A DNA stretch of 64,000 bases from Candidatus Levyibacteriota bacterium (GTDB lineage: Bacteria; Patescibacteriota; Microgenomatia; Levybacterales; GWA1-39-11): the NCBI GenBank assembly GCA_050255815.1, contig JBLMVJ010000019.1:26-64025 (forward strand). The letters are read 5' to 3'. The notes beneath the pieces are model-generated. The model worked only from the letters and a program-made list of their open reading frames with translations, was not told the origin of the DNA and made no database searches. Every line of letters begins with the position of its first letter. Positions within the stretch are counted from its first letter, which is position 1. The translations under genes were made by a program, and so were the position numbers. This document shows, piece by piece, positions 4,297 to 53,189 of this stretch.

Positions 4297-4399
4297 ATAT
4301 TTTAGAAAAAGTTGTCCTTCACCCTTCGGGGTTCAGGATCAATCATTTTTTTCTATTATATTTAAGTTGACGAAAAAATGATTGGAGGTGACTTAAATT

Positions 4400-4543
4400 A
4401 TGGCAAGCATGTACTGTGTAAAATGTAGAGCAAAAAGAGAAGATGCAAATGCAACTGCTGTTACTATGAAAAATGGTAAACCAGCAATGAAAGGAAAATG
4501 CCCAGTTTGCGGAACAGCAATGTTCAAGATTGGAGCAAAATAA
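4400..4543 (+). CDS. DUF5679-like small zinc-ribbon protein (47 aa)
   Basis: Not in ORF track (under 60 aa). SD TGGAGGTGA 8 nt upstream of ATG. Translation is MASMYCVKCRAKREDANATAVTMKNGKPAMKGKCPVCGTAMFKIGAK with CxxC..CxxC. Typical of the small Zn-ribbon proteins common in CPR genomes. Confidence 0.7.
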   Translation: MASMYCVKCRAKREDANATAVTMKNGKPAMKGKCPVCGTAMFKIGAK

Positions 4544-4569
4544 AGTTTCTCTAATTTGCGAAAAAACCC

Positions 4570-17951: not shown

Positions 17952-18052
17952 ATTTAATACCCTGAAATTGATTGATATTGATTGAAATTAATAGAAACTA
18001 ATTGTAATTACAACAAATTTCTAACAATTTCGCGAGCGAAGCGAGCATATTT

Positions 18053-18463
18053 CTATAAATATCTATTGATCAATATTTTCCGCCCTTCCCCTTCTATCTC
18101 AAATTTCACTTCCCACCTTTTCTCCGGAAGATTTTTGAGTTTCTCCGGCCACTCTATCAATTTGATTGAATTTGGGTCTTCCAGCAATTCTTGAATGCCT
18201 ATTTCCTGCAAATTTTTCATACCCTCAATTCTGTAAAGATCTATATGGTGCATATTATTGTGAGTTCTAACAATAGGAAATGTTGGGGAAATAATTCGTG
18301 TCTTCACCCCAAGTCCTACTGCTATGCCCTTCACAAAAGTAGTTTTCCCATATCCTAAATCTCCATAAAGCAACACAACATCACCCGGCTCTAATTCCCT
18401 TGCAAATTCTTCTCCCAGTTTTTGTGTCTCCTCATCCGATGTTGAAAAAAATTCTTGATTCAT
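18053..18463 (-). CDS. tsaE: tRNA t6A biosynthesis ATPase TsaE (YjeE)
   Basis: P-loop LYGDLGYGKTTFVKG typical of TsaE. Start set at MNQEFF (18463), forming an ATGA overlap with the upstream stop; the track ORF extends to 18556. Confidence 0.85.
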   Translation of the reverse strand: MNQEFFSTSDEETQKLGEEFARELEPGDVVLLYGDLGYGKTTFVKGIAVGLGVKTRIISPTFPIVRTHNNMHHIDLYRIEGMKNLQEIGIQELLEDPNSIKLIEWPEKLKNLPEKRWEVKFEIEGEGRKILINRYL

Positions 18464-22744: not shown

Positions 22745-23752
22745 TTAAGCCTTCAGTTCAGCCTCAATAAAGACGTCCAGATCTCCATCTAAAATAGCGT
22801 TTACATTTCCGGATTCTACCTTGGTCCTGGTATCTTTCACCAACTGGTAAGGATGCAGTACATAATTCCTGATTTGGTTTCCCCAGGAAGGCGCCACATA
22901 TTCCCCGCGGATCTCTTTTTTCTCTTTTGCTTTATCTTCCTCATATTTTGCCCAAAGCTTAGCTTTCAGAAGCCGTAAGGCATTTTCCCGGTTCTGGTTT
23001 TGGTAGCGCTCCTGGGAACAGGTGACAATAAGCCCGGTAGGTTTATGGGTAAGACGTACAGCCGTAGAGACTTTATTTACGTTTTGGCCGCCATGGCCAC
23101 CAGAACGGAAAAAATCCCATTCCAGGTCATCATCTTTTATATCTACCTCAGAATCATTTTCAATTTCAGGCAGTACTTCAACCAACGCAAAGGAAGTTTG
23201 ACGCAGATTAGCCGAATTAAACGGGGAAAGCCTGACCAACCGGTGAACTCCCTGTTCACCCTTTAGATACCCGTATGCATTTGTCCCCTTAATACTTACC
23301 ACTACTTTTTTTAGCCCGGCTTCTTCACCGGAAACTACATCTATCTCTTCCAGTTCCCACCCTTTTTCCTCAGTAAACCGGGTATACATGCGGTATAGCA
23401 TTTGCGTCCAGTCCATGGCATCCACCCCGCCCTGGCCTGCATGGATAGTCATAATGGCATTATTTTTGTCATGCTTTCCGGAAAGGTATAAATACAGCTC
23501 CAGGTCTTTGATAAAATGCTCAAGTTCACTATAGTGGCCTAAATCAAGCAGTTCCTGGATTTTTTGAGCGTCAGCCAACTCTTTCTGTAAAGATCCCAAT
23601 TGTTTCATTTTAGAAGTTGCAGCAGTGGGGTCTTTCCAGAAGTCCGGATCCATACTCTCAGATTCAATTGCAGACATCTGTTTCTTTTTCTCTTCAACGT
23701 CTAGTTTTTGGAGGATTATATGCGCCCGCTCTTTCAGCTCATCTTCATTCAT
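22745..23752 (-). CDS. prfB: Peptide chain release factor 2 (single ORF, no programmed frameshift)
   Basis: SPF tripeptide ([15 protein letters not shown]) and GGQ ([12 protein letters not shown]). Aligns with E. coli RF2 from the post-frameshift region onward. Confidence 0.92.
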
Positions 23753-25549: not shown

Positions 25550-26275
25550 CTATGCATGCCCTACAACTACCGCAATAGAAATCCTTCCCCGTCTTTCCAC
25601 TGCAATATGCCATTCATTAATTCCAAATTGTCTTCTTAATGCATCAGTCTCCCCATATGTTCTGACCTGCATTCTTCCATCCTGCATGTAGGTTTCAGCA
25701 GTTCTCCATTTTACTCCCAGTGGATTTCCATTTCCCACCAAAATCTTAGCTACTGCTTCTTTTACCGCCCACCTATTCTTCAGTAGGTCTGGATCCCCAT
25801 TGCATTCCTTGATCTCAGCTTCAGTAAAAGCTCTTTCTGGACGTGCAAAAAGCCGGCTTGACTGCCTATCCGCATTACAATCAACTCCAACCCTTAAATT
25901 ATTTACTGAACCCGTATCTCCTACAACAAACCCCACTGCAATTCCTTCATCATGGGAAATACTTACTGCAAAAGAGTTTATTCCTCTTCTAGTAGCCTCC
26001 CTAAATGCTTCTCCTTCTAGCTTCATAAAGGGATCTCCCTGTTTATGTTTCCCAATCTGAATATCAGACAGGGGAACAGGAACTCCTAATATTCTGGATA
26101 CCCCTAGCTTAACAGCCAATTTACCAGAAAGGCTTTCCTCTCTAATAACATCTTTTCTTTTACTCGACTCAATTTCTTCCTGGGTAAACCATCTTCTATC
26201 CATACCTTTTGCAACTTCAGAGGACAGCATTTCTAATCTTATGAATTGTGCCGGTATAGGAGTTTCTATTTTCAT
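25550..26275 (-). CDS. 4'-phosphopantetheinyl transferase (Sfp-type)
   Basis: SISHDEGIAVGFVV, VGVDCNADRQ (GxD-type) and WAVKEAVAKIL (W/KEA motif) characteristic of PPTases. 241 aa, two-half architecture. Confidence 0.7.
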   Translation of the reverse strand: MKIETPIPAQFIRLEMLSSEVAKGMDRRWFTQEEIESSKRKDVIREESLSGKLAVKLGVSRILGVPVPLSDIQIGKHKQGDPFMKLEGEAFREATRRGINSFAVSISHDEGIAVGFVVGDTGSVNNLRVGVDCNADRQSSRLFARPERAFTEAEIKECNGDPDLLKNRWAVKEAVAKILVGNGNPLGVKWRTAETYMQDGRMQVRTYGETDALRRQFGINEWHIAVERRGRISIAVVVGHA

Positions 26276-45992: not shown

Positions 45993-46115
45993 AAATAATT
46001 AGAATTTAAATTGAATAAAGAAAATTGAGGGTAAGATAAGGAGTAGGAAATTTCAGATTTAAATTCTACCTATATTTTACCATATTAAGGTGGAATTTGT
46101 GGTCTAAATATGGTC

Positions 46116-46139
46116 CAGCCCCGACTGAGCGGGGCTGGG
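46116..46139. promoter_or_regulatory. Strong GC hairpin (CCAGCCCCG-actgag-CGGGGCTGG) in secA upstream region
   Basis: 9-bp all-GC/AT-perfect stem in a 40% GC genome. Lies ~125 nt upstream of the secA ATG. No adjacent U-run. Confidence 0.4.
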
Positions 46140-46145
46140 GAATAC

Positions 46146-46261
46146 CATTTGATCAATTGGTAATCGCTTTTAATGCGAATCCAATCAGAAAAACTTCAAA
46201 GCTTAGCTTTAGAGCTTAGGATCCGCTGGGATCCGCAACTTTTAAAGCTTAGCTTTAAAAG
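46146..46261. promoter_or_regulatory. Cluster of dyad-symmetric operator-like elements
   Basis: 14/16 palindrome CCAtTTGATCAAtTGG at 46146-46161. Two copies of AAAGCTTAGCTTT at 46199-46211 and 46245-46257. GGATCCGC x2 at 46220-46237. The second palindrome extends to 10-bp arms (46241-46261). Confidence 0.4.
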
Positions 46262-46262
46262 T

Positions 46263-46295
46263 TATTTCTTCTTCTTCTTTTTCTTTGCAGCCATG
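46263..46295 (-). CDS. Candidate leader mini-ORF MAAKKKKKKK with perfect 12-nt SD
   Basis: AAGGAGGTGATC (exact complement of the 16S 3' tail) 5 nt upstream of ATG GCT GCA (AAG/AAA)x7 TAA. Directly followed by the palindrome cluster. Speculative. Confidence 0.3.
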
Positions 46296-46509
46296 GACAG
46301 ATCACCTCCTTGGTTTTTGAACTTTAAAATGAATTTAAAATTCAAGTTTATAGGATACATTAATCGTGATAAAAATTGCATGATTTGTCAAGAAAAAAAC
46401 CCTGCTTCAAAAATGAAGTTTTGGATTGAAGAATAGGGAAAAATTATACCGTGAAAACTGCGCTTTTTTAAGCATTTTCAACATAATTTTTGGAAAAAAT
46501 GGCTTACTA

Positions 46510-47772
46510 TTATTTCTTTGGGGTTATTACATCAAATCCGGTGTATTTTTGCAGAACCGGAGGAACTACCACTGACCCATCAGCCTGTTGGTAATTTTCC
46601 AAAATAGCAATAAGGGTCCTTCCTATGGCAAATGCCGTACCATTCAGAATAGTCACAAACTCTTTTTTATCCTTTTCCTGATATTTTATGTTCAATCTAC
46701 GAGCTTGGAACTGACCAGTAGTAGAAATAGAGTGGGTCTCCCTATACTTATTTTGCGCCGGCATCCAGGTCTCTATATCCCGCGTTTCTGCCGCCGGGAA
46801 AGAAATATCCCTTGAGGCAAGACGTACAACCCGATAAGACAGCCCCAATTCTTCCATAAATTTCTCTGCCAATGCAGTTAATTTCCCCAGTTCCAGCTCA
46901 TCATCTTCCGGCTTTGCAAAAGATACCATCTCTACCTTTTCAAACTGGTGGACGCGCAAAATTCCGCGCGTATCTTTTCCGTATGACCCAGATTCACGGC
47001 GGAAAGCAGGGGAGAAGCCTACGTATCTTTTTGGCAAATCTGCTGCTTTAAATGTTTCATCTGTATGCATCGGAACCAATGCGTGCTCCGCAGTTCCTAT
47101 TAAGTACAACGCATTCTCTGCTTCCTGTCCTTTTTCCACTTCTTCAACATTCTGCGTCACATAATAATTAGTCTTATTTTCCGGGGTCCAGTAGCCAAGT
47201 CCCTTGGTAATTTCATTTTTTATAAGTACGGGGGGGAATACAGGAGTAAAACCGTCTTTTCGTAAAGTGTCCAAAGCAAACTGGACTAATGCAAGCTCTA
47301 AAAATACTGCTTCATTTTTTAAATAAGCAAACCGTGCACCGGAAACTTTTGCGGCACGGGCTACATCTATAATATCCAGCATCTCACCCAGTTCCAAATG
47401 GTCTCTGATTTTGAAATCAAACTTTCTGGGCTCCCCTACCGTCTTAATAACCTCAAAATCATCCTCTCCGCCTAAAGGTACTTCAGGGGCAGGAAGGTTA
47501 GGTATTTTTAGAAGTTCTTGCTCAAGTTCTAGCTTGACTATTTTCAATGAGGACTCAAGCCCATCCAACTCTTCCTTAATCCTTTTTCCCTCTTCAATGT
47601 TCCGGTCTTTTGCTGCAATATTGCGCTTTGCCTGCAATTCCTGGACCTGTGTGTTCAACTCCCGGTACTTTTTATCTAATTCAAGTACTTTTTCCACATC
47701 CACATCCACGCCTTTTTTCTGCGCATCCTGTTTTACCACCTCCGGATTCTCCCGTATAAACTTTAAGTCCAA
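46510..47772 (-). CDS. serS: Seryl-tRNA synthetase
   Basis: N-terminal coiled-coil arm (MLDLKFIRENPEVV..) and class II core motifs. Start moved to MLDLKF (47772); the track ORF starts 47811. Confidence 0.92.
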   Translation of the reverse strand: MDLKFIRENPEVVKQDAQKKGVDVDVEKVLELDKKYRELNTQVQELQAKRNIAAKDRNIEEGKRIKEELDGLESSLKIVKLELEQELLKIPNLPAPEVPLGGEDDFEVIKTVGEPRKFDFKIRDHLELGEMLDIIDVARAAKVSGARFAYLKNEAVFLELALVQFALDTLRKDGFTPVFPPVLIKNEITKGLGYWTPENKTNYYVTQNVEEVEKGQEAENALYLIGTAEHALVPMHTDETFKAADLPKRYVGFSPAFRRESGSYGKDTRGILRVHQFEKVEMVSFAKPEDDELELGKLTALAEKFMEELGLSYRVVRLASRDISFPAAETRDIETWMPAQNKYRETHSISTTGQFQARRLNIKYQEKDKKEFVTILNGTAFAIGRTLIAILENYQQADGSVVVPPVLQKYTGFDVITPKK

Positions 47773-47897
47773 CATAGTATTTAAGGTTAAAAGGCAAAAT
47801 GCAAAAGTCAAAACTGAAACTCAAAATTTAAAAGTTTTAAAGATTATAATTTTTACCTTTGACTTGCACTTTTGAATTTTGATCTTTGATTTTTGAA

Positions 47898-48629: not shown

Positions 48630-49496
48630 ATGACAAACAGGAATCTGGTGCTGGAAAAAACTGAAGAGTATGAGCTTTTGGATTCAGGTGGTGAACAAAA
48701 GCTGGAACGCTATGGACAATATGTTATAGCAAGACCTGAAAAACAAGCCCTGTGGAAGAAATCCCATCCGGATTTATGGGAAAGGGCAGACGCTACATAT
48801 ATTAGAACCACTGATAAATTTGGAGAATGGAAAACAAAACAGAATATTCCTAATGAGTGGATTTTTAATGCATCTTCCAGTTTTAAGATGAAGTTAAAAT
48901 TAACTCCCTTTGGCCACGTAGGCATTTTCCCAGAACTTAAAAGTCAATGGGACTGGATTCAAAATATTACTCAAAATTCTCCTTCTCCCAAAGTCCTTTC
49001 CCTCTTTTCCTATACCGGTGCCGCAACGCTAGCTGCTGCTGCTGCCGGCGCACTGGTAACCCATGTAGATGCTTCAAAACCCGCTATTTCCTGGGCAGTA
49101 GAAAACCAGAAACTATCAGGACTGGAGCCTAAACCAATCAGATGGATAGTAGATGATGCGCTAAAATTTATAAAAAGAGAAGAGCGCCGGGGAAACATAT
49201 ATGACGGCATCATTATGGATCCGCCTAAATTTGGCCGAGGCCCAAAAGGTGAAGTGTGGCAGTTTGAAGAAGATTTTCCCGAATTGATGGAATCCTGCAC
49301 AAAGATTTTGGCAAAGAATCCTCTATTCTTTTTAGTTACCGCATACACGGTACCTATCTCACCTATAACACTTACCAATATGACCGCTGATATCTTGCCA
49401 AATAAAGAAAAAATTGAATTTGGAGAGATAACTATTAAAGAGTCGGAGTCTGGAAGACAACTACCTACCTCTATTTACGCCCGCTGGAATGCTTAA
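48630..49496 (+). CDS. Class I SAM-dependent rRNA methyltransferase-like (RlmI/YccW-type PF10672 fold)
   Basis: LSLFSYTGAATLAAAAAGALVTHVDASKPAISWA SAM-binding region and DGIIMDPPKF (DPPxF) catalytic motif. Confidence 0.75.
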   Translation: MTNRNLVLEKTEEYELLDSGGEQKLERYGQYVIARPEKQALWKKSHPDLWERADATYIRTTDKFGEWKTKQNIPNEWIFNASSSFKMKLKLTPFGHVGIFPELKSQWDWIQNITQNSPSPKVLSLFSYTGAATLAAAAAGALVTHVDASKPAISWAVENQKLSGLEPKPIRWIVDDALKFIKREERRGNIYDGIIMDPPKFGRGPKGEVWQFEEDFPELMESCTKILAKNPLFFLVTAYTVPISPITLTNMTADILPNKEKIEFGEITIKESESGRQLPTSIYARWNA

Positions 49497-51592: not shown

Positions 51593-51934
51593 TTAACTTG
51601 CTCTTTTTTGTGCACTTACCGTGTTTCCTTCTGGTAGAGCATACAATCTATTCTCCCGGATAAATGTCTGCCTTGCATACTCTTTCACTATGTTACGCAT
51701 TTCCCACCCTAATCCTTCAACTGCATTTCTTACGTTGGCACCAAGAGCACCTTGTTGGGCAATAGCAATCCGCTCCCCCTCTACACCAACCCGGGACATG
51801 CTGAGCTGCACCTGTGTACGGGGCTGCTCATCTATAAGCACCTGGGAAATATCAAGGGCAATAACCCGTCCATTATTACTAAAGTAGTGTTCTCCCGTTT
51901 TTAAATTATTTAATGCTTCAATTATATTTTTCAT
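51593..51934 (-). CDS. Hypothetical protein (113 aa) with very strong SD
   Basis: AAAAAAGGAGGTGATAAAC-ATG. Start moved to MKNII (51934) because the track GTG start lies inside the SD. No family recognised. Confidence 0.55.
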   Translation of the reverse strand: MKNIIEALNNLKTGEHYFSNNGRVIALDISQVLIDEQPRTQVQLSMSRVGVEGERIAIAQQGALGANVRNAVEGLGWEMRNIVKEYARQTFIRENRLYALPEGNTVSAQKRAS

Positions 51935-51961
51935 GTTTATCACCTCCTTTTTTCAGTTTTT

Positions 51962-52190: not shown

Positions 52191-53189
52191 TCAAGTTTTC
52201 TTTTCAAACCGGCTCATTAGTTCATATGCCTCATCTTTTATTTCTTCTGTCACCTCAAGCCTTACCATTCCTGCCCCCGGCTGCCCATAAAAAATGGTAA
52301 AGCCAAGAGGAGCGCAGAGTAGGGCAGGCAAAACAGCAAGATCCTCTTCCCCTTCTACAATAATCACTACCCTAGGCCCTCTCTCGCCCGGGAAGAAAGC
52401 TTGGGATGATTGCCTAAGAACTTTACGGATGGCTTTCGTTAGCTCTGAACTTACATTGCCTGCCGTATTTACTACCTTTATTTTTTCAGACGGTGGAAAC
52501 TCCCCTTCCGGAATTTCTTTGCGCTCTACTTTGTTATCAATAATTGCCAACTGAGGAAAAATTTCCGCATCCAGAAATGTTTTTGTGGTCCTATCACCTA
52601 CGGTTATTAATTTTTTAGAATTTATCCGGGGAGGTTCTGTAATGATTTCTCCCCAAATATCCTGTAGTTTTTTGCGTAGGGTAGAGGGGAGTAGAAAAGT
52701 ACTTTCCAACCATTCCTGTTTTACAAATATCCGCCCTGCTCTGTTAATTTCCCCATTCCTTATTCTGGTAGAGGTTATTGGTTCACCATCTTCTGCTAGG
52801 GTTAATTGAAAAATCTCCAGCGGCAATTCAGGCATACCCTCCTCTACCCTTTTTTTATTTACCCCTCTACCCGCTTCTTCCGTTGCCGTGGTTACCGCTA
52901 GGGAATCGAATTTATAGGCAGGATTCAGCGTAGGGCCAAAGTGGTCATCTAGGGAAACAATTTCTATATCCTCTGCTCTCCCTGTGCTTTTTAAAAAGGC
53001 TTCAAGGGCATGCAGCCGGATATCATATGCTTCAACTCCTAAGCCTCCTTTATACGCATTAATATAGGTATCAGAAGTTAACCCAAGCACAACTTTTTCG
53101 CCTAGGCTTACTATAAAATTAAGAAAATCTTTGTGTCCTTGGTGGAGCCGGTCAAATGTGCCGCCTGCAGCTACTAAATGATATGCCAT
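52191..53189 (-). CDS. Fused archaeal-type phosphopantetheine adenylyltransferase (N) + GTP-dependent dephospho-CoA kinase DUF359 (C)
   Basis: N-terminal cytidylyltransferase motif AAGGTFDRLHQGH. C-terminal ITVGDRTTKTFLDAEIFPQLAIIDNKVERKE...VVIIVEGEEDLAVLPALL matches the DUF359 dephospho-CoA kinase pattern (vGDvvt..ivDgk..R). Confidence 0.7.
   Translation of the reverse strand: MAYHLVAAGGTFDRLHQGHKDFLNFIVSLGEKVVLGLTSDTYINAYKGGLGVEAYDIRLHALEAFLKSTGRAEDIEIVSLDDHFGPTLNPAYKFDSLAVTTATEEAGRGVNKKRVEEGMPELPLEIFQLTLAEDGEPITSTRIRNGEINRAGRIFVKQEWLESTFLLPSTLRKKLQDIWGEIITEPPRINSKKLITVGDRTTKTFLDAEIFPQLAIIDNKVERKEIPEGEFPPSEKIKVVNTAGNVSSELTKAIRKVLRQSSQAFFPGERGPRVVIIVEGEEDLAVLPALLCAPLGFTIFYGQPGAGMVRLEVTEEIKDEAYELMSRFEKKT

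Follow-up and report, generated by a model that had tools for sequence, protein, structure and literature searches.

A candidate lysine-rich micro-gene with mccA-like layout between serS and secA in Microgenomates

The transcript of mccA is short, abundant and stabilised by ribosomes, and it ends at an intrinsic terminator (PMC4231749). Very short open reading frames (ORFs) can be translated reiteratively without release of the ribosome, a behaviour that declines as the ORF is lengthened to 15 codons (PMC6495379). In the attenuators hisL, trpL, thrL, pheL and leuL, a short ORF that repeats one type of codon is followed by mutually exclusive pairings and a terminator, and in the SecM-secA pair of E. 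coli, as with MifM and VemP, the upstream ORF lies beside a gene of the Sec pathway. Here we describe a small ORF that invites comparison with all of these. It encodes MAAKKKKKKK behind an extended Shine-Dalgarno (SD) sequence, on the minus strand between serS (seryl-tRNA synthetase) and secA. The DNA analysed, referred to as the window, is a 64-kb stretch of a contig from a metagenome-assembled genome (MAG) of Candidatus Levyibacteriota (Microgenomates, candidate phyla radiation (CPR); 40% GC). We give a probability of roughly 0.55 to the reading that this is an independent, unannotated micro-gene between serS and the secA promoter, with an mccA-like stand-alone transcript predicted to encode a polycationic peptide, and not a switch for secA.

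A lysine-rich micro-ORF conserved upstream of secA

The serS stop codon (46510-46512) and the secA ATG (45992) are separated by a spacer of 517 nt (45993-46509), the largest non-coding stretch of the window. A preliminary description of this DNA had pointed to an unusually long structured region upstream of secA, and this is borne out by folding: the spacer RNA is far more stable than shuffled sequences (381 nt, -107.5 kcal/mol, z = -7.1; none of 100 shuffles equalled it). The mini-ORF, SD, palindromes and hairpins described there are all present in the spacer, at the recomputed coordinates in Table 1.

Homologous loci were collected in two ways. Eighty loci were retrieved via SecA alone and form a sample that is unbiased for the module, that is, for the micro-ORF with its associated signals. 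A palindrome scan of metagenomes gave at least 120 loci, a sample biased toward palindrome-bearing modules; about 111 of the 120 matches listed are mini-ORF modules and the others look like chance matches within genes. Pooling and de-duplicating the two sets yielded at least 116 unique modules, and the counts for the terminator, the P1 helix and the secA promoter are given over 105. A lysine-rich ORF behind a GGAGGTG-type SD, on the secA strand and upstream of secA, was present in 25 of the 80 SecA-retrieved loci. Among the palindrome-carrying loci, 115 of 116 have the mini-ORF, and the lone exception is a truncated contig.

The SD is conserved together with the ORF. In the window, AAGGAGGTGATC is complementary at 12 of 12 positions to the canonical 16S 3' end, as had been described (the host's own 16S lies outside the window), and its core GGAGGTGA occurs only four times on both strands of the 64 kb. 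All modules have a GGAGGTG-type SD 5-10 nt 5' of the ATG.

The predicted peptides have an extreme and consistent composition. The 116 unique modules encode 69 distinct peptides of 9-34 aa with a modal length of about 9-12 aa (for example MAKKKKKKKK, MAAKKKAKKKKK and MPVKKTAAKKKTAVKKTVKKTVAKKKKK). After the initiator Met, no D, E, L, I, F, Y or C was found in 1,355 residues (K 941, A 206, R 85, T 47, V 39, P 21, G 7, S 5, H 2, N 1, W 1). Lys and Arg make up 76% of all residues across modules, and the window peptide has seven Lys in ten codons. Of the residues that are a single step from AAA or AAG, E, Q and I were never seen and N was seen once, whereas R and T occur often, so that selection and not drift accounts for the composition. 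ORF lengths are 27, 30, 33 ... 51 nt only, nine length classes separated by whole codons. The start is ATG in 115 of 116 modules, the stops are TAA (84), TAG (31) and TGA (1), and the peptides end in K or R. AAG accounts for 66% of the Lys codons (621 of 941) compared with 27% in the genes of the window, which argues for avoidance of slippery A-runs, the opposite of a stalling or sliding design. Together, the complete exclusion of acidic residues and the use of AAG over AAA point to the peptide and its accurate decoding as the targets of selection, and not to stalling. With this coding signature in at least 116 modules, the mini-ORF is evidently a conserved and translated micro-gene, and the earlier suggestion that mini-ORF and SD form a functional element was justified. 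On our preferred reading, selection acts on the peptide itself and not just on its being translated.

The RNA itself might instead be the functional molecule. The predicted transcript, with its promoter, hairpins and terminator, resembles a small RNA (sRNA) in size and layout, and such an SD is a rarity in a genome where SDs are scarce. If the sRNA were non-coding or had two functions, its super-SD could be a sponge for the anti-SD (30S), or its purine-rich AAG run could serve as a seed or bind proteins as an ARN-type tract, and the peptide would be a by-product. We consider this improbable given that all nine length classes, each a multiple of three, preserve the start codon, the spacing to the SD and an in-frame stop. 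In addition, G never occupies the first position of a codon in the purine run, which leaves no Glu/Gly bias, and longer variants carry in-frame GCA, ACA, GTA and CCA codons. We also rejected a programmed frameshift into a longer ORF by inspection, as stops occur in all frames and only ~100 nt are left before secA.

Searches for known relatives of the peptide were negative. Pfam-A and NCBIfam profiles gave 0 families at E <= 10 for seven variants of 20-33 aa, although low-complexity queries limit the sensitivity of this comparison. Ten peptide variants were absent from a 15-billion-protein collection by exact look-up, and literature searches on small ORFs or leaders rich in lysine, in CPR or 5' of secA, found no relevant paper. 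Rfam 15 at the gathering threshold gave no matches in the window and 13 related loci, with best sub-threshold scores at chance level. The lysine micro-gene is unreported by gene callers, and nothing similar was found in Rfam, Pfam, NCBIfam or the searched literature.

Some small ribosomal proteins offer a comparison for such a product. bTHX, bS22, bL37 and eL41 have defined conserved sequences and lengths and contain Arg and aromatic residues. The micro-gene peptides are, like these proteins and the uS19 tail, tiny, extremely basic and probably highly expressed, with a composition like that of nucleic-acid-binding tails, but they are of low complexity, range from 9 to 34 aa and match no Pfam or NCBIfam family. 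Longer variants, such as MPAKKKAAPKKTAAKKTVKKAAPKKKAAAKKKK, share the K/A/P/T/V composition of histone H1-like C-terminal domains and bacterial H1-like proteins, including the lack of acidic and bulky hydrophobic residues. This likeness is compositional only, and the micro-gene peptides differ in being free-standing molecules of 9-34 aa and not domains of larger proteins. Within the CPR, an A/K-rich extension is known on the ribosomal protein uS19 in Parcubacteria (PMC9297842). The peptide is most likely a nucleic-acid- or ribosome-binding oligocation, a guess made from its composition.

The micro-gene appears to have its own promoter. The consensus anchored on TTGACA in 108 of the 116 modules reads tGATTTTT..CAATCTAAA..TTTTGAAGCAAAG.AAA..CTTGACAAA-N17-CAc.AT, and in the window transcription would start at about 46356. 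The blocks 5' of the -35 (tGATTTTT, CAATCTAAA, TTTTGAAGCAA) are better conserved than the 5' untranslated region (UTR) in the 108 modules, a pattern that suggests UP elements or sites for a bound factor, with transcription that is regulated or very strong. The corresponding blocks of the window are probably UP-like or factor-binding sites; by blastn, this stretch is also conserved in loci L001, L002, L009, L012 and L025. Relatives have hairpins of other sequence at the site of the 5'-UTR hairpin. TTGACA was also found in the distant Microgenomates L005, L047, L052, L072 and L076, which have a promoter, SD, ORF of 21-33 aa and terminator without the palindrome. The core of the family therefore comprises promoter, SD, oligo-Lys ORF and terminator.

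A plus-strand ORF of 87 aa (46173-46436) that contains FFFFFFFF is a poly-Phe artefact antisense to the Lys codons and encodes no conserved protein; automatic callers might annotate it. A second gap of ~500 nt in the crude ORF map (17952-18459, minus strand) holds a TsaE/YjeE-like ORF (..LYGDLGYGKTTFVKG..), so it is not non-coding. A tRNA/tmRNA scan found none.

Table 1. Coordinates of the features at the locus. Positions refer to the window unless a related locus is named; promoter, leader and RNA-structure assignments are predictions.
Feature	Position	Strand	Details
Micro-ORF, ATG..TAA ATGGCTGCAAAGAAAAAGAAGAAGAAGAAATAA, MAAKKKKKKK*	46294..46262	-	conserved in at least 116 unique homologous modules
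Extended SD AAGGAGGTGATC	46311..46300	-	5 nt before the micro-ORF ATG
Conserved blocks TATAATTTTT (46439-46448), CAATCCAAA (46420-46428), TTTTGAAGCA (46403-46412)	46403..46448	-	upstream of the putative micro-gene promoter
Putative -35 hexamer TTGACA	46386..46391	-	40-190 nt before the mini-ORF start in 108/116 modules
Putative -10 hexamer CACGAT	46363..46368	-	17 nt past the -35; column consensus CAc.AT, fixed 17-nt spacing
5'-UTR hairpin, 12 bp	46317..46345	-	just 5' of the SD; in minimum-free-energy (MFE) and centroid folds
P0, long AT-rich hairpin (hairpins 1-3 of the preliminary description)	46187..46269	-	from folds; clade-specific
P0 parts h1, h2, h3	46238-46262, 46219-46234, 46194-46214	-	
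P1 helix: element 1 GATTGG (46181-46186), inner hairpin ATTCGC..GCGAT (46163-46180), element 2 TTACCAATT	46155..46186	-	
P2 palindrome: element 2, TGATCA centre, element 3 (AAATGGTA)	46142..46163	-	competes with P1 for element 2
GC hairpin CCAGCCCCG/CGGGGCTGG (46115-46138), then ACCATATTTAG	46104..46138	-	homologue of the family's intrinsic terminator
secA extended -10 promoter TGGTAAAAT	46074..46082	-	TGnTAnnnT element
secA leader, ~80 nt, without SD	45995..46073	-	ends form a 17-nt inverted repeat; insertion relative to leaderless relatives
secA, 917 aa	43239..45992	-	protein 100% identical to an NCBI MAG protein of Candidatus Levyibacteriota
serS	46510..47811	-	conserved upstream neighbour; tblastn synteny and Pfam families on related contigs
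PF01564 gene followed by oligolysine micro-ORF	L047 3779-4417; L072 2837-3523; L052 2573-3256; L076 3996-4640		in related loci

Predicted alternative helices at the stop codon

In most Levybacteria, (A/G)TTGGTAA (element 1) comes directly after the stop codon, and next come a small hairpin of free sequence and TTACCAAT-TGATCA-(A/G)TTGGTAA (elements 2 and 3). Two mutually exclusive helices are predicted, P1, in which element 1 and the stop codon pair with element 2, and P2, the palindrome formed by elements 2 and 3. P1 formed in 91 of 105 modules in a restricted fold and in 83 of 105 in the MFE of the full segment, with a mean of -12.6 kcal/mol and a median z of -4.4. In the P1 alignment, 91% of the cells are paired, and pair 13-55 is AU in 28, GC in 7 and GU in 3 sequences; the covariation score was reached by none of 500 shuffles. 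For example, where element 2 carries CCAAC, element 1 starts with G and the stop is TAG, and L002 combines TATCAAT with ATTGA. There are 20 distinct P1 inner hairpins. In full transcripts, the 8 nt past the stop are paired at a mean P of 0.84 and the stop codon is paired at P > 0.5 in 74 of 116. The preliminary description had proposed that the ribosome affects the structure of this RNA, an idea that gains substance here, as a translating ribosome must melt an RNA helix beginning at the stop codon.

The palindrome had been reported as a 14/16 match, and it is both present and conserved (CCAATTGATCAAnTGG). In its longer form TACCATTTGATCAATTGGTA (19/20, 46143-46162) it is found once in the window, with 0 copies expected by chance. 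P2 is weaker than P1 (-6.9 vs -12.6 kcal/mol). RNAalifold on a MAFFT alignment picked only the invariant P2, and P1 was tested explicitly; one compensated P2 pair was seen by eye in L031. A four-codon ORF inside the palindrome (TTG ATC AGT TGG TAA) was discarded, as it is not conserved and is open-ended in the window.

The sequence conservation of TTACCAATTGATCAnTTGGTAA, which persists while the adjoining hairpins drift, could also be that of a DNA site. The 20-22-bp palindrome and a third half-site would then be an operator for a dimeric regulator (the preliminary description had suggested an array for a dimeric repressor) or a recombinase site, with RNA pairing incidental. The palindrome is perfect in some loci and its half-site is present in three copies. 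We regard a DNA site as improbable, however, for several reasons. There is one copy per locus and one in the 64 kb. The palindrome starts 21-22 nt past the mini-ORF stop in 61 of 105 modules, and its distance to the secA -10 varies (42-78+ nt) with no helical phasing. Its variable column changes in step with the upstream RNA partner but not with the partner in the palindrome, and the commonest variant is a G-U wobble, which is acceptable in RNA but is a mismatch in DNA symmetry. Metagenome matches outside mini-ORF modules are few and chance-like, and there is no inflection in GC skew. A dif or terminus site was likewise rejected, as GC skew is uniformly negative across 8-56 kb.

In the clade of the window, an extra domain, P0, lies between the stop codon and element 1. 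It contains the features that had first drawn attention to the spacer: copies of AAAGCTTAGCTTT at 46198-46210 and 46244-46256 flank GGATCCCAGCGGATCC (46219-46234) and are followed by UUUUUCU (46193..46187). The proposed pairing of hairpin 1 with hairpin 3 is also reproduced, and the MFE structure is one long hairpin. The closing helix of P0 pairs the last Lys codon and the stop (AGAAAUAAC) with UUUUUCU. The closest relatives (L201-L205, 80-84% SecA identity) have spacers of ~390-560 nt upstream of secA, with a GDSL-lipase gene between serS and the micro-gene spacer in L201. All insert a P0 domain, each of different sequence, in which the last Lys codons and the stop pair with a U-rich run just 5' of GATTGG. 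This recurrence means that UUUUUCU is better read as the 3' strand of a helix than as a conserved terminator tail. Three local hairpins like h1-h3, with compensated sequences, were found only in L205 (80% SecA identity), and L201, L203 and L204 have other hairpins. P0 is missing from most modules, where the distance from stop to palindrome is 21-22 nt. Of the elements whose conservation the preliminary description proposed to check, the mini-ORF, SD and palindrome are thus conserved, whereas hairpins 1-3 are clade-specific and do not represent a design kept beyond the immediate clade. They do not form a mobile repeat or miniature inverted-repeat element either, since beyond the pair in P0 AAAGCTTAGCTTT occurs just once more, within a gene at 22954 (0.33 copies expected by chance), and so is not dispersed.

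Terminator, secA promoter and the relation to secA

Downstream of P2, relatives have an intrinsic terminator in 102 of 105 cases, in which four or more T come straight after a hairpin of median length 10 bp; the hairpins have 91 distinct sequences. The 9-bp GC hairpin noted earlier in the window is the homologue of this terminator. The window and L201 both have ACCAUAUUUAG after the stem, a degenerate form of the T-run. Neither P1 nor P2 overlaps the terminator stem. In an in-silico equilibrium fold, the stem formed with P 0.94 in free RNA and with P 0.93 when the region from the SD to 12 nt past the stop was masked to mimic a ribosome. The co-folding proposed in the preliminary description thus revealed no alternative antiterminator, none is predicted, and the logic of a classical attenuator fails.

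These data bear on the proposal that the locus is a ribosome-mediated attenuator of secA, in which a ribosome on the Lys-rich leader would toggle P1 and P2 (P0 and UUUUUCU in the window) and so set read-through into secA. The leader ORF is enriched in the codons of one amino acid, as in the trp and his attenuators. Mutually exclusive 1:2 and 2:3 pairings adjoin a terminator, the stop codon sits inside a helix, and the module is always on the secA strand and directly upstream. In the window, P0 pairs the last codons with a U-run and could be melted by a terminating ribosome, and the terminator homologue in the window and L201 has no T-run. Nevertheless, the trp/his arrangement differs in that its switch overlaps the terminator (3:4), whereas here the terminator is clear of element 3 and its formation is unaffected by masking of the ORF. 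secA is outside the lysine pathway and has its own promoter. Whole-peptide composition is under selection and not only a codon run, and the total exclusion of D and E and the preference for AAG are unexpected for a codon-run sensor. L052 and L072 have another gene between the module and secA, and the U-run after P0 is not kept in L201, L203 and L204. We therefore consider a lysine attenuator of secA unlikely. Its possible range is mainly the clade of the window, where it is conceivable through the degenerate T-run and a P0 melted by the terminating ribosome.

The promoter of secA can be recognised in most modules. A TGnTAnnnT element lies 6-9 nt before the secA ATG in 77 of 105, so that secA is leaderless there, and Levy-like loci without the module keep the same TGnTAnAAT promoter in a serS-secA gap of ~70 nt. 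With its own promoter and a leaderless mRNA, secA does not need a read-through transcript. The window has an SD-less leader of ~80 nt in addition. Leaders of ~80-90 nt are also found in L012, L180, L182 and L187, with unrelated sequences between lineages, and in each acquired leader the 5' and 3' ends pair, which places the 5' end beside the AUG. The leaders of the window and of these four loci look like independent hairpin insertions between -10 and ATG. A conserved motif TTGAGGCTG (or TTGAAGCT) occurs ~10-25 nt upstream of the secA -10 in L016, L017, L018, L022 and many module loci, too near the -10 for a standard -35.

The preliminary description had correctly noted that secA has no SD, and had contrasted this with a genome that uses SDs. 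The contrast does not hold, as only about 8 of 56 ORF starts in the window have an SD match of at least 5 nt (starts were approximated by the longest ORF). At several window ORFs an extended -10 (TGGTACAAT, TGGTAAAAT or TATAAT) ends ~6 nt before the ATG (starts at 48630 (+), 25550-26275 (-), 22745-23752 (-) and 52191-53189 (-)). TGGTAnAAT at ~6 nt before the ATG indicates leaderless mRNAs, on which the genome appears to rely largely. The absence of an SD at a leaderless secA is therefore ordinary. Of the three other GGAGGTGA super-SDs, two precede small ORFs, one (4384-4545, +) encoding a 47-aa DUF5679 zinc ribbon (MASMYCVKCRAK...) and the other (51593-51954, -) encoding 116 aa without a Pfam match. 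It seems that the genome keeps strong SDs for a handful of stand-alone genes of small size.

An arrest-peptide monitor of the SecM, MifM or VemP type that controls secA translation had also been suggested. It draws on the position upstream of secA and on the polybasic nascent chain. The 69 distinct peptides of 9-34 aa have no signal peptide, transmembrane or hydrophobic stretch and no conserved arrest motif, and a peptide of 9-10 aa cannot leave the exit tunnel to be pulled. AAG is favoured over the sliding-prone AAA. Unlike in the SecM, MifM and VemP systems, there is no shared mRNA architecture, as a terminator (102 of 105) and a promoter intervene, and secA has no SD to unmask. We give this explanation almost no credence.

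The gene neighbourhood was compared across relatives, and the nearest SecA relatives of the window protein are Levybacteria. In non-Levy Microgenomates a PF01564 (spermine/spermidine synthase-domain) gene lies between serS and secA; besides the four loci in Table 1, it was seen at this position in L029, L034, L035, L037, L038 and L044. We rejected a link of the micro-gene to polyamine synthesis, since the PF01564 gene also precedes secA where there is no mini-ORF (L029, L035, L037), and the adjacency is probably synteny. Many contigs with SecA 70-78% identical to that of the window (L003, L006, L011, L015, L017, L018 and others) are titled "uncultured Gammaproteobacteria bacterium", which looks like mislabelling.

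A candidate mccA-like gene

The strong SD, ORF of footprint length, stop-codon helix, terminator and strong-looking promoter together best match the expression logic of mccA. Both have a very short ORF (seven codons in mccA, most often 9-11 in the micro-gene), an efficient SD and a terminator soon after, giving a short monocistronic RNA that in our case is predicted from sequence alone. By sequence layout, this combination of short ORF, SD and close intrinsic terminator is found in 102 of 105 modules. The systems differ in several respects. mccA shares its promoter with mccB-E, whereas secA, the next gene here, has its own. The mccA peptide is the substrate of an enzyme; the micro-gene has serS and secA as neighbours and no modifying enzymes nearby. 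The C-terminal Asn and an MccB-type enzyme were not found, the micro-gene peptides end in K or R, and the peptide sequences are unrelated. Finally, the mccA terminator is masked in the absence of ribosomes, whereas that of the micro-gene is predicted to be constitutive.

We propose the following model. The micro-gene would have been inserted between serS and the secA promoter. Its conserved promoter would drive a transcript of ~150-250 nt with a 5' hairpin and an unusually long SD, and the ORF of 9-34 codons would be translated into a lysine-rich polycation. A stable helix would form at or within the stop codon (P1 in most relatives, P0 in the clade of the window), and the intrinsic terminator would end the transcript, leaving secA to be transcribed from its own extended -10 promoter. 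Like mccA, such an RNA would be short and stable, loaded with ribosomes and geared to making a tiny peptide in high yield. A ribosome would be captured by the strong SD on an ORF about one footprint long, and P1 may act as a backstop. Melting of P1 by the terminating ribosome would leave element 2 held by the weaker P2, and P1 would re-form when the ribosome departs. Through this exchange of P1 and P2, ribosomes might more readily start again on the mRNA they have just translated, and the RNA might stay folded and protected. The mccA RNA is reshaped and stabilised when ribosomes bind it (PMC4231749, PMC6495379), and we extend this to the micro-gene by analogy.

Several observations weigh against this model. 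The start and ends of the transcript, its translation and the peptide are deduced from conserved sequence, and the backstop and re-initiation step from the analogy with mccA. The P2 alignment has no compensatory change, its variable column does not follow the palindromic partner, and part of the P2 invariance in L081-L200 was imposed by the search pattern. The module is missing in the close Levybacteria L006, L017, L018, L022 and L027, where it is either dispensable or located elsewhere. A specific structural ligand would not usually be a low-complexity peptide with a length spread of 9-34 aa. The module adjoins secA even in L047, without serS nearby, which leaves a possible, unexplained link to secA. 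The terminator homologue without a T-run also makes some read-through into secA plausible in the window and in L201.

A broader joint reading is more tentative, and we think it possible without favouring it: Microgenomates may carry a family of conserved stand-alone protein genes shorter than any others known (9-34 codons), with essentially oligolysine as product and a dedicated, ribosome-trapping mini-mRNA whose stop is gated by P1/P2. The oligolysine would in that case be a genetically encoded polycation akin to a polyamine, or a new peptide of the ribosome or nucleoid, made in quantity.

If the peptide is real and abundant, an unannotated class of genes, skipped by gene callers, would be added to CPR genomes. 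The micro-gene would then represent an extreme case of a functional micro-ORF, a natural RNA switch that gates a stop codon, and an occurrence of mccA-like logic outside antibiotic operons. The locus also illustrates the selective use of strong SDs where a genome is poor in SDs and its mRNAs are largely leaderless. To annotators, it serves as a warning that an upstream mini-ORF with hairpins is not always an attenuator of the next gene.

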